From the IMG/VR virus record IMGVR_UViG_3300023296_001674: 64,000 nucleotides of DNA; one strand, written 5' to 3'. The stretch comes from a virus. Shown piece by piece: positions 29,386-30,645 of the stretch (position 1 is the first letter of the stretch; every line of letters starts with the position of its first letter). The notes beneath the pieces were generated by a model that did no database searches, had not been told where the DNA came from, and worked only from the letters and a program-made list of their open reading frames with translations. Made by a program: the position numbers and the translations under genes.

Positions 29386-29874
29386 GTGAATAAGTTACTC
29401 TATGCGATAATCGCACTATTAATATCTACAAATCAAGTTATAGCCGCCGATGCTACCGGAACGGCTTCCGCAACAATTGTTGCACCGATTGCAATTTCTG
29501 CTGGCGCAGCAATGAATTTTGGAACAATGGCTCCAACTGGTACAGCAGGAACGGTTCTTGTTAATACATCAGGTGGAACAACCGCTACTAATGTTACAGA
29601 ATTGGGTTCTGGGTCATCGTCACAAGGTGTATTCACTGTAACAGGTGAAGGTTCCGCGACATACAGTCTTACAGTTCCAACCACCGATGTAACATTAACA
29701 AGTGGTTCAGACACAATGGTTGTAAACGCATTTAATCACGATGCAGGAGCAACACCAGCAATAGCTAGTGGTGGGACAAGCACCATAAACGTAGGAGCAA
29801 CGTTGAATGTTGGGTCTGCTCAAGCAGTCGGTTCTTATACTGGCACTTACACAGTTACCGTTAACTACAACTAA
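29386..29874 (+). CDS. SCPU/DUF4402-family secreted pilin-like protein (paralog 1)
   Basis: signal peptide; mature N-terminus ATGTASATIVAPIAI; Thr/Gly-rich; C-terminal GSYTGTYTVTVNYN as in SCPU/Csu-type subunits. Confidence 0.55.
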   Translation: MNKLLYAIIALLISTNQVIAADATGTASATIVAPIAISAGAAMNFGTMAPTGTAGTVLVNTSGGTTATNVTELGSGSSSQGVFTVTGEGSATYSLTVPTTDVTLTSGSDTMVVNAFNHDAGATPAIASGGTSTINVGATLNVGSAQAVGSYTGTYTVTVNYN

Positions 29875-30193
29875 AGCGGCAAGTGTAACGGGTTCAGTTT
29901 CTGCTACAATTGTTACACCATCTGGTGTCGCAGTTATAACAGTTCCCAATGATGTGGTAATAACTGTGTCAAGTGAATTAAAAAATTTGATACCGAATAT
30001 ACGATCCGAACAAATAATCCAAGCCGTACAGAAAGAATTAGTGCGGTTTGGAGGATTTACTATATCGGGGTCGCCTAATCAAGTTATATCGGTTGTTGTT
30101 GATGGTATATCATTTGATGCAGTTATCAATTCATTTGGTTCTGCTATATTTGATAAAAAGGTGAAACGAACATTTATGATACATTATAACTAA
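29807..30193 (+). CDS. SCPU/DUF4402-family protein (paralog 2), with signal peptide encoded in an overlapping frame
   Basis: ATG at 29807 (AGGAG 9 nt upstream) lies inside paralog 1 in the +1 frame; MLGLLKQSVLILALTQLPLTTTKA-ASVTGSVSATIVTP is a signal peptide followed by the family's mature N-terminus. Confidence 0.45.
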   Translation: MLGLLKQSVLILALTQLPLTTTKAASVTGSVSATIVTPSGVAVITVPNDVVITVSSELKNLIPNIRSEQIIQAVQKELVRFGGFTISGSPNQVISVVVDGISFDAVINSFGSAIFDKKVKRTFMIHYN

Positions 30194-30645
30194 TGAAAAA
30201 TATATTACTCATTATACTTTTTAGTATTTTTGCATTCCCTGCTATTGCTCAAATGGTAGTTATTGCAAAAACTAATATGAAATTTGGTTCGGTATCTTCC
30301 AGCGTGGATGGTAGTGGAACCGTAACGATCTCGCCAACATCTGATACAACGACGCTATCTGGTACGATATTTGATTTTGGTGGTACGGTAAAACGAGGCA
30401 AATTCAAAATAGAAAATGGAACACCCAAAGCGTTTGTTACTATCATATTACCTCCTTCGATCACCATCACCAAAGGATCACATACGTTGACGGTGGACCA
30501 ATTAACCCTAAGTGTTACCAACCCGGTGAAATTGAATAACTCGGGTAAGAAAGTTTTTTATGTTGGTGGTAGATTATCAATCCCAACTAATCAAAAAGCT
30601 AAAAAAAATTATAATGGTGATTACACCGTAACCGCAGTAGAATAA
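30193..30645 (+). CDS. SCPU/DUF4402-family secreted protein (paralog 3)
   Basis: signal peptide; C-terminal NYNGDYTVTAVE; ATG overlaps the upstream TAA. Confidence 0.55.
   Translation: MKNILLIILFSIFAFPAIAQMVVIAKTNMKFGSVSSSVDGSGTVTISPTSDTTTLSGTIFDFGGTVKRGKFKIENGTPKAFVTIILPPSITITKGSHTLTVDQLTLSVTNPVKLNNSGKKVFYVGGRLSIPTNQKAKKNYNGDYTVTAVE

Follow-up and report, generated by a model that had tools for sequence, protein, structure and literature searches.

The window analyzed here is a 64-kb piece of the 570,549-bp metagenome contig ena:ERZ27315719:k141_202852 (IMG/VR record IMGVR_UViG_3300023296_001674), and coordinates given without a locus name refer to it. From position 29386 to position 30645, three open reading frames (ORFs) follow each other head to tail on the plus strand, tightly packed. 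ORF1 (29386 to 29874, +) starts with GTG and encodes a pilin of 162 amino acids (aa) that resembles a major subunit and matches Pfam family DUF4402. ORF2 (29807 to 30193, +; 128 aa) starts with an ATG inside ORF1, in the +1 frame of that gene, and appears to encode a shrunken form of a protein found in bacterial DUF4402 operons, here called the "second subunit." ORF3 (30193 to 30645, +; ATG start, 150 aa), finally, encodes a DUF4402 subunit without an N-terminal extension (Nte). An original prediction, made from the DNA letters only, had described the locus as three tandem SCPU/DUF4402 genes, the middle one of which starts within its neighbor. On the basis of the analysis below, we conclude that this middle gene, starting inside its upstream neighbor in another frame, is real. 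What is new is the occurrence of a cassette consisting only of subunit genes on huge-phage-like genomes, together with a predicted signal peptide that is overprinted on the conserved strand of a paralogous gene.

The overlapping start of ORF2 and its conservation

The coordinates and frames in which the original prediction placed the ORF2 start proved correct. The ATG at 29807 is preceded, at a distance of 9 nucleotides (nt), by an AGGAG Shine-Dalgarno (SD) sequence (29793 to 29797, +) that coincides with the Gly-Ala codons GGA GCA of ORF1, and it opens a dual-coding overlap of 68 nt (29807 to 29874, +). In frame 0, this overlap specifies the last strand of ORF1 (NVGSAQAVGSYTGTYTVTVNYN, followed by the stop codon) and, in frame +1, residues 1 to 22 of ORF2, belonging to its predicted signal peptide (MLGLLKQSVLILALTQLPLTTT). 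With the start of ORF2 inside ORF1, approximately 22 of the 24 signal peptide residues are thus overprinted on codons of the conserved last beta-strand of ORF1. In the ORF2 frame, a TGA codon (29804 to 29806) directly abuts the ATG, and the first ATG, GTG, or TTG beyond codon 2 is the GTG at codon 50, so that, as had been claimed, ORF2 has no start of its own directly behind the ORF1 stop codon.

SD sequences are used in this genome: a 4-mer SD core at positions −18 to −4 was found for 29 of the 56 long plus-strand ORFs, versus 7.7% of random positions, and a 5-mer SD sequence was found for 25% of long plus-strand ORFs, versus a background of 1.8%. ORF1 itself has an SD-like AAGGA (29373 to 29377, +) 8 nt upstream of its GTG, and a promoter-like site (TTGAAG-17-TACAAT; 29329 to 29357, +) lies approximately 29 nt upstream of the gene, although this is weak evidence only, the number of promoter-like sites found by a promoter scan of the region being no higher than in shuffled sequence. 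No SD sequence was found upstream of ORF3, the start codon of which shares one base with the ORF2 stop codon (TAATG). Folding of the overlap RNA, in search of a coupling hairpin, gave no significant structure in this lineage or in the second one described below (z scores of −0.5 and +1.0), and a terminator scan found no terminator 3′ of ORF3.

Via the closest relatives of ORF1, we reached a second lineage of the cassette (loci L002, L003, L004, L007, and L008), recovered from different samples and at least five assemblies, the products of which (ORF1′, ORF2′, and ORF3′) are 58%, 38%, and 49% identical, respectively, to the corresponding proteins of the window. The ORF2 homolog in L003 (1567 to 1971; 134 aa) likewise begins within ORF1′, its ATG lying in the +1 frame of that gene, and the second lineage repeats the TGA-ATG arrangement, the GGAG, and the overlap of 68 nt; the context of the start in L003, GGAGCAAC.TTGAATG, is conserved. 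At 38% identity, the two ORF2 sequences differ by in-frame insertions and deletions only. The junction between ORF2 and ORF3 is coupled in both lineages, by the TAATG in the window and by an ATGA overlap in L003. A sequencing or assembly frameshift was rejected as an explanation, since the frames recur unchanged in several independent assemblies and across both lineages despite their divergence.

Past the ORF1 stop codon, the ORF2 frame contains no stop codons in 105 to 110 codons, versus 8 to 12 in each of the other two frames, in both lineages; the probability of such a stop-free frame is approximately 2.5e-4 in one lineage and 1e-3 in the other. In residues 23 to 44 of ORF2, which begin at the first codon past the overlap, 15 residues are conserved between the lineages, 13 of them through synonymous codon differences, which argues that this part of ORF2 is under selection as a protein. 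Selection on these residues in turn means that translation must start upstream, inside ORF1, and the ATG is the sole canonical start that both lineages have in common in that upstream part. Not only the ATG but also the GGAG, the hydrophobic core, and a cleavage-type site (between TKA and A) are kept in both lineages. Moreover, a 20-nt stretch of the overlap (GGTTCTTATACTGGCACTTA) is identical between them, with an identity at the protein level of only 58% for ORF1. The only close homologous lineage retains the overlapping start, as would be expected if the original prediction was right.

As a control, the last 68 nt of 74 further metagenomic DUF4402 loci were inspected; these loci had been collected in a metagenome scan with a 6-sequence alignment, an alignment of 30 sequences being too diverse. 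The +1 frame was open in 10 of the 74, and none of these open frames was strongly hydrophobic: the best 10-residue Kyte-Doolittle mean, our measure of hydrophobicity, did not exceed 1.55, versus 3.24 for ORF2 in both lineages. A second control set, consisting of 157 DUF4402 C termini from GTDB genomes, had an open +1 frame in 45 cases, and in none of the 157 did an ATG-started, signal-like peptide lead into a long ORF. The usual +1 stops in other DUF4402 tails arise from Val codons GTA or GTG that precede codons starting with A; the Val codons of ORF1 in the overlap are GTT or GTC in both ORF2 lineages, thereby avoiding such stops. The TGA-ATG, on the other hand, is a by-product of conserved Leu-Asn-Val codons. 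At the corresponding site in 136 distinct family members, an ATG was present in 66, a GGAG in 21, and both in 11, from which we conclude that the start was preadapted and that the open, hydrophobic frame is the lineage-specific part. Taken together, these observations show that the ORF2 arrangement is more than chance, and they make the locus a well-controlled case of overprinting, in which the +1 frame of a neighboring gene, over its most conserved strand, spells out a predicted export signal. Across approximately 230 control family members that frame is normally closed, and the ancestral, separated state can still be seen in bacteria. During the same comparisons, +2-frame "ORFs" running across DUF4402 genes in high-GC loci were also encountered and were dismissed as Arg-rich artifacts of GC content.

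Gene calling has treated the overlap in opposite ways. In the source annotation of the window, ORF2 and ORF3 were called, while ORF1 had been replaced by an antisense ORF of 93 aa (29433 to 29714, −); in the second lineage, it is ORF2 that was left uncalled, as an "intergenic gap" of approximately 340 nt (L002, 6486 to 6832; L003, 1634 to 1968; L004, 1320 to 1666). As a consequence of these miscalls, ORF1 of the window contig and most copies of ORF2 are missing from protein databases, in which the family is thus underrepresented.

A comparable arrangement is known from the overlapped spanins of phages (P2 lysB/lysC and the T5 pair, with an overlap of 70 bp), in which the second gene begins within the 3′ end of the first, but in a different frame, and the final part of the i-spanin gene specifies, out of frame, the signal sequence of the o-spanin (PMC6139136). 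Both "separated" and "overlapped" members are found within spanin families, and one of the two partners is routinely missed by gene callers (PMC6139136). ORF1 and ORF2 resemble these pairs in the out-of-frame internal start, in the extension of the second gene beyond the first, and in the position of the predicted export signal within the overlap, and DUF4402 loci, too, show separated and overlapped states and one partner missed by gene callers. The hallmarks of two-component spanins are the lipobox cysteine of the o-spanin, the N-terminal transmembrane domain of the i-spanin, and a lysis cassette. We rejected a spanin identity, because ORF2 is devoid of cysteine, and hence of a lipobox, and because ORF1 belongs to a different family, as a DUF4402 protein with a predicted cleavable signal peptide. 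In further contrast to spanins, ORF1 has no transmembrane anchor beyond that signal peptide, there is neither homology to spanins nor a lysis cassette, and ORF1 and ORF2 are distant paralogs from a single superfamily of fiber subunits.

Families, folds, and bacterial counterparts of the three proteins

By sequence, the description of all three genes as DUF4402/SCPU genes was only two-thirds right. ORF1 (4.4e-28; 99 bits) and ORF3 (2.6e-20; 73.8 bits) match Pfam DUF4402 (PF14352) above its gathering threshold of 25.2 bits, whereas ORF2 has no Pfam match at an E value of ≤1, and SCPU (PF05229) likewise drew no match at that E value from any of the three. No PHROG family was matched by any of the proteins either, and a profile search of PDB sequences yielded no Csu or CupE chain and no solved pilin. 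The C-terminal Y.G.Y.V.V.Y signature attributed to all three is present in ORF1, partially so in ORF3, and absent from ORF2. Their pilin-like nature, in contrast, found support in the AlphaFold (AF2) model of ORF1, with a predicted local distance difference test (pLDDT) score of 91, the top Foldseek matches of which in the PDB were Caf1, CsuA/B, FimA, PapA, and CfaB; CupE was matched as well. Judging from this model, ORF1 has a pilin-type immunoglobulin (Ig)-like fold. The SCPU label, therefore, fails by sequence, while the fold resembles that of chaperone-usher pilins.

Each of the three proteins begins with a segment that, by eye, resembles a Sec-type signal peptide. For ORF1, which has 618 homologs (the closest with 60 to 61% identity), cleavage is predicted after residue 20, between MNKLLYAIIALLISTNQVIA and AD, and the mature protein would consist of an Nte (ADATGTASATIVAP), the body, and a C-terminal strand (GSYTGTYTVTVNYN). 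The predicted ORF2 signal peptide carries K6 (R6 in L003), is uncharged from residue 7 to residue 22, has SVLILAL as its core, and ends in T-K-A followed by A; cleavage after TKA (residue 24) would leave 104 mature residues, with a donor-strand-like N terminus (ASVTGSVSATIVTP), the motif ISGSPNQVISV, and a C-terminal end reading FMIHYN. The predicted mature N termini of ORF1 and ORF2 are in register, and the alignment between them that the original prediction had pointed out (ASVTGSVSATIV versus ADATGTASATIV in ORF1) was confirmed. In ORF3, cleavage is predicted after residue 19, between MKNILLIILFSIFAFPAIA and Q, so that the mature protein begins at the first core strand; this protein aligns to the family hidden Markov model (HMM) only from profile position 39, past the extension, and lacks the donor-strand motif that takes the form of ADATGTASATIVAP in ORF1 and ASVTGSVSATIVTP in ORF2.

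ORF2 proved the most divergent of the three. Among 5.8 billion clustered proteins (word-indexed search) and 1.84 billion representatives (exhaustive search), its only homologs were itself and the L003-type protein. Among 15 billion proteins, ORF2 is thus represented by just one further lineage. The family HMM aligned to residues 10 to 54 only (E value of 0.0075), and a profile-profile comparison of the DUF4402 family with ORF2 (hhalign) covered just 25 N-terminal columns, with a probability of 51%; the DUF4402 profile thus aligns to ORF2 solely at the end of the signal peptide and the N-terminal strand. A better match was found among the bacterial DUF4402 operons (L005, L088, and L165 to L167; from Rhodospirillales-type and other genomes), which are mostly alphaproteobacterial and consist of five parts. 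These are a major subunit of approximately 165 aa with the N-terminal motif ADATGTASATIV; a second subunit of 187 to 265 aa, with a borderline Pfam score or none, the N-terminal motif ..RIVRPAGV.., and an end reading ..V.VSYN; a PapD_N chaperone of 284 to 300 aa (29 bits, versus a cutoff of 23); a convergent subunit of approximately 165 aa without Nte; and a large, divergently encoded outer-membrane protein of 1,043 to 1,056 aa without a PF00577 usher domain, the 1,056-aa representative of which showed only weak matches, to CarboxypepD_reg and SdrD_B. Of 13 metagenomic loci, 10 had a chaperone gene within 3 kb of the DUF4402 genes, as did 41 of 50 loci from genomes, and arrays of two to five DUF4402 genes are common.

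In a local hhalign comparison, 116 columns of a profile of nine second subunits could be aligned to ORF2, at a probability of 85% and an E value of 6e-6. The two share the motifs IV.P(A/S)GV and ISG.PNQ.(I/F)(S/T) and a terminal hydrophobic-x-Y-N, and the long segment that separates the last two of these in second subunits is missing from ORF2. By this alignment and by its position, ORF2 is the counterpart of the second subunit, to which it is remotely related in sequence; one member of the second-subunit group barely passes as Pfam DUF4402 (26.0 bits). What had been taken for a plain paralog of ORF1 is better described as a shortened homolog of that subunit. Since the bacterial second subunit has its own separate, nonoverlapping start and signal peptide, the overlapping start of ORF2 is derived rather than ancestral. 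The closest homologs of ORF3 (45 to 53% identity) are the convergent bacterial subunits without Nte, and the closest bacterial homologs of ORF1, in Rhodospirillales metagenome-assembled genomes (MAGs), are 54 to 58% identical to it. The match of ORF1, ORF2, and ORF3 to parts of these operons identifies the cassette of the window as the three subunits of such an operon minus the chaperone and the large outer-membrane protein.

Compared with the bacterial operons (Rhodospirillales, Bacteroidota, and others), the correspondence of ORF1, ORF2, and ORF3 to the major, second, and Nte-less subunits is one to one, and the identity to bacterial DUF4402 members reaches 58 to 61% for ORF1 and 45 to 53% for ORF3. 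In contrast to those operons, however, the window has neither chaperone nor large outer-membrane protein, its second subunit is shorter by approximately 90 to 150 residues, with a new start and predicted signal peptide overprinted in place of the original ones, and its three genes lie on one strand and are translationally linked. The comparison with chaperone-usher pili of the archaic and alternative types (Csu of Acinetobacter, CupE of Pseudomonas, and Caf1 of Yersinia) is one of similar fold, as far as the ORF1 model goes, without a sequence match to SCPU PF05229 or to solved pilins; in addition, the bacterial DUF4402 operons differ from those systems in that they have a protein of approximately 1,050 aa without a PF00577 usher domain, and the cassette of the window in that it lacks a chaperone or outer-membrane partner and resides on a phage-like genome. 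DUF4402 is thus a distinct, unstudied relative of chaperone-usher pilins; we found no mention of it in the searchable literature. The bacterial operons may represent a chaperone-dependent fiber pathway with a noncanonical outer-membrane component, and our results mark DUF4402 as the subunit family of such a system, which would be widespread and comprise three subunit classes.

In two further loci, the subunits occur as fusions: single proteins of 304 and 307 aa (L009, 2509 to 3423; L087, 2497 to 3420) consist of an ORF3-like domain without Nte, a linker of approximately 10 aa, and an ORF1-like domain that begins with the donor-strand motif. One is encoded on a 340-kb metagenome contig and the other on a 961-kb "Rhodospirillales MAG" contig, neither with a chaperone gene within 3 kb. 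The order of ORF3-like domain, linker, and ORF1-like domain is the topology of engineered self-complemented pilins. From their domain order, these fusions look like natural self-complemented subunit pairs, a topology that lends support to a contact between ORF3 and ORF1.

Setting of the cassette and possible routes to a fiber

The window resembles an accessory region of a huge phage, with genes almost wholly on one strand. It encodes AspRS (3297 to 5111), TyrRS (53425 to 54675), an RNA ligase (14179 to 15204), TelA (18033 to 18962), and a TilS-like PP-loop ATPase (52156 to 53103), almost all on the plus strand, in addition to two tRNAs, a glucosaminidase, an S8 protease, and many proteins without known family. 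Huge phage LR756500 encodes an RNA ligase with 39% identity to that of the window. Ninety nucleotides 3′ of the cassette, with no terminator in between, lies a gene encoding a major vault protein (MVP)-like protein (30737 to 33346, +; Pfam MVP_shoulder, 2.9e-22; Vault_3, 1.9e-12), which is 40 to 42% identical over 96% of its length to the products of genes in three uncultured phages, LR756500 (462 kb) and LR756501 and LR756503 (735 kb), suggesting that this group of huge phages has MVP homologs in common. Besides the MVP-like gene, LR756500 and the window have the RNA ligase gene and one more gene in common, yet the DUF4402 cassette is absent from LR756500. A tRNA island surrounds the cassette in the second lineage, with 14 tRNA genes in L002 (2697 to 7602) and 18 in L003 (429 to 7613; 7.6 kb); these islands, of approximately 8 kb each, cover most amino acids and contain no MVP-like gene. 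Dense tRNA islands are typical of very large phages. A tblastn search with ORF1 had no match in 50,697 GenBank phage records, a megablast search of the region against GenBank phages gave zero matches, and pattern scans of IMG/VR for ORF3, the MVP-like protein, and the ORF2 and ORF1 alignments were all empty.

The statement that no chaperone or usher gene is nearby was corroborated. An HMM built from the chaperones of the DUF4402 operons themselves, which detected held-out bacterial loci at approximately 1e-100, found nothing in the 64-kb window, L002 to L004, L009, or L087 (E values of >0.7 throughout and of >1 for the window and L002 to L004), and the window contained neither a usher-like ORF (PF00577) nor a further DUF4402 gene. 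On the strength of all of the above, we consider it probable that the locus is a three-gene subunit cassette from an alphaproteobacterial-type DUF4402 fiber operon, carried on a huge-phage-like genome without chaperone and outer-membrane protein. ORF1, with its predicted signal peptide, Nte, and pilin-like Ig fold, is the major subunit, of a polymerizing type; ORF2 corresponds to the second subunit, cut down to its 104 mature residues, devoid of its own 5′ end, and read from the ATG at 29807, which is preceded by an AGGAG of its own; and ORF3, with its start fused to the ORF2 stop codon, represents the subunit class without Nte. All three would be exported through Sec, their predicted Sec-type signal peptides implying export rather than cytoplasmic assembly.

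In chaperone-usher pili, subunits are joined by donor-strand complementation (PMC9452303, PMC10104325). By analogy, the N-terminal strands of ORF1 and ORF2 would act as donor strands, and ORF1 would polymerize via its own. ORF3, with an acceptor groove and no donor strand, might be located at one end of the fiber, as tip or initiator, while ORF2, with a donor strand and a reduced body, might serve as adaptor or terminator. With no chaperone or usher encoded nearby, the simplest reading is that assembly depends on the DUF4402 chaperone and outer-membrane machinery of the host, and the phage might in this way remodel, or add to, the surface fibers of its host during infection. As to the overlap, a deletion probably removed the second subunit's own start, at a time when the T-rich third positions of the ORF1 tail already provided a hydrophobic +1 frame and the TGA-ATG preexisted. 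The use of a host DUF4402 chaperone and of host outer-membrane machinery by subunits that the phage encodes is a tentative proposal, and we lean against it somewhat; the complete scenario, in which a huge phage feeds subunits to host machinery and rebuilds surface fibers while the signal peptide of the minor subunit arose anew by overprinting, is doubtful, a shade more so than the proposal just made. Still, the finding of such a cassette of subunits only on huge-phage-like genomes raises the possibility that phages make use of the pilus assembly machinery of their hosts. If true, the scenario would describe the first phage-borne pilin set of the chaperone-usher type and a clean natural example of the de novo birth of a signal peptide in an alternative frame.

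Several points weigh against the derivation and assembly proposed here. The search for chaperone, usher, and further DUF4402 genes extended over 64 kb of the 570-kb contig, and a chaperone gene might be present elsewhere on that contig. The AF2 model of ORF2, based on a two-sequence alignment, has a pLDDT score of 36 and is unusable, leaving the fold and acceptor groove of this protein unsupported, and the link between ORF2 and the second subunits consists of a single profile-profile alignment, in which identity drops to 13% once three short motifs are set aside. The extra conservation of synonymous sites in the overlap, where 11 of 18 ORF1 codons are identical, versus 28 of 73 outside it, is only suggestive (Fisher's exact test, P = 0.07). 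Signal peptides were assigned by eye and are predicted only, and the comparison between lineages has the shallow depth of two lineages.

With respect to assembly, the alternative to host machinery is that the fibers are autonomous, either through chaperone-free self-assembly or through a chaperone and outer-membrane partner encoded elsewhere in the 570-kb genome. The limited reach of our chaperone search leaves room for the latter, and the fusions in L009 and L087, with no chaperone gene within 3 kb, hint at chaperone-independent self-complementation. It is established for chaperone-usher systems, however, that pilin-type subunits with an open groove aggregate when no chaperone is present; furthermore, bacterial chaperone genes lie within 3 kb in approximately 80% of loci, and no chaperone was found in the window or in L002 to L004, L009, and L087. 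We therefore regard autonomous fibers as unlikely. The idea, put forward in the original prediction, that the fibers belong to virions or to an MVP/vault-like compartment rather than to the cell surface draws on the phage-like genome and on the MVP-like gene directly downstream. The linkage between the two is not conserved, given that the cassette is not accompanied by the MVP-like gene in the second lineage and that LR756500 has the MVP-like gene and no cassette. Moreover, the predicted Sec-type signal peptides of ORF1 to ORF3, which would mean export, have no counterpart in the MVP-like protein, and the closest relatives of the three are subunits of bacterial envelope operons, all of which makes such a location highly improbable.

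The remaining alternatives concern the way in which ORF2 is read. Programmed +1 frameshifting, or hopping at the TAA, might join ORF1 and ORF2 and leave the internal ATG idle; tandem DUF4402 fusions do occur naturally, as in L009 and L087, and the donor-strand motif of ORF2 follows only 2 codons past the ORF1 stop codon. Neither a slippery nor a prfB-like shift site was found in the 68 nt, however, and folding of their RNA revealed no significant structure. A shift within the overlap would swap the invariant last strand of ORF1 for a hydrophobic peptide, and the conserved ATG, GGAG, hydrophobic core, and cleavage-type site would be superfluous for a fusion protein. This mechanism is very unlikely, if perhaps not quite to the extent of fibers on virions or vaults. 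The least credible reading is that ORF2 is an unexpressed, decaying remnant of a second subunit that lost its start and that the "signal peptide" in the +1 frame is a by-product of ORF1 codons. Such decay would fit a protein that lacks a Pfam match, does not reach half the length of the bacterial second subunits, and was skipped by gene callers in L002 to L004, and the combination of ATG and GGAG does occur by chance at this site, as seen in the 11 of 136 family members. It is difficult to reconcile with a frame that stays open over 128 codons in the window and over 134 in the second lineage at an identity of 38%, with the in-frame nature of all insertions and deletions and the synonymous differences at 13 of 15 conserved residues, and with control tails that are almost never both open and hydrophobic in the +1 frame. 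In addition, ORF3, lacking an SD sequence, depends on the ORF2 stop/start junction.

Other genes in the window

Upstream of the cassette, positions 18966 to 28019 contain an ABC-transporter-like set, including NMT1-type binding proteins, one of which is fused to an OmpA domain (21967 to 23520), and a BPD_transp_1 permease (25813 to 26646). The ABC ATPase of this set appears to be split (27079 to 27252 and 27243 to 28019), which could reflect a frameshift or a misset start. Directly 3′ of the MVP-like gene, we found genes encoding a DUF1508 protein (33448 to 33735; 2.4e-22) and an Hsp20 protein (33987 to 34466; PHROG 432, 4e-37). Finally, the gene from position 60265 to 63999 (+), which runs past the end of the window, encodes a very large protein (>1,245 aa) of the secreted type; it combines a subtilase S8 domain with an I9 inhibitor propeptide and five or more He_PIG Ig-like repeats, and among PHROG families, a phage "protease" family matches it best (1.6e-55).

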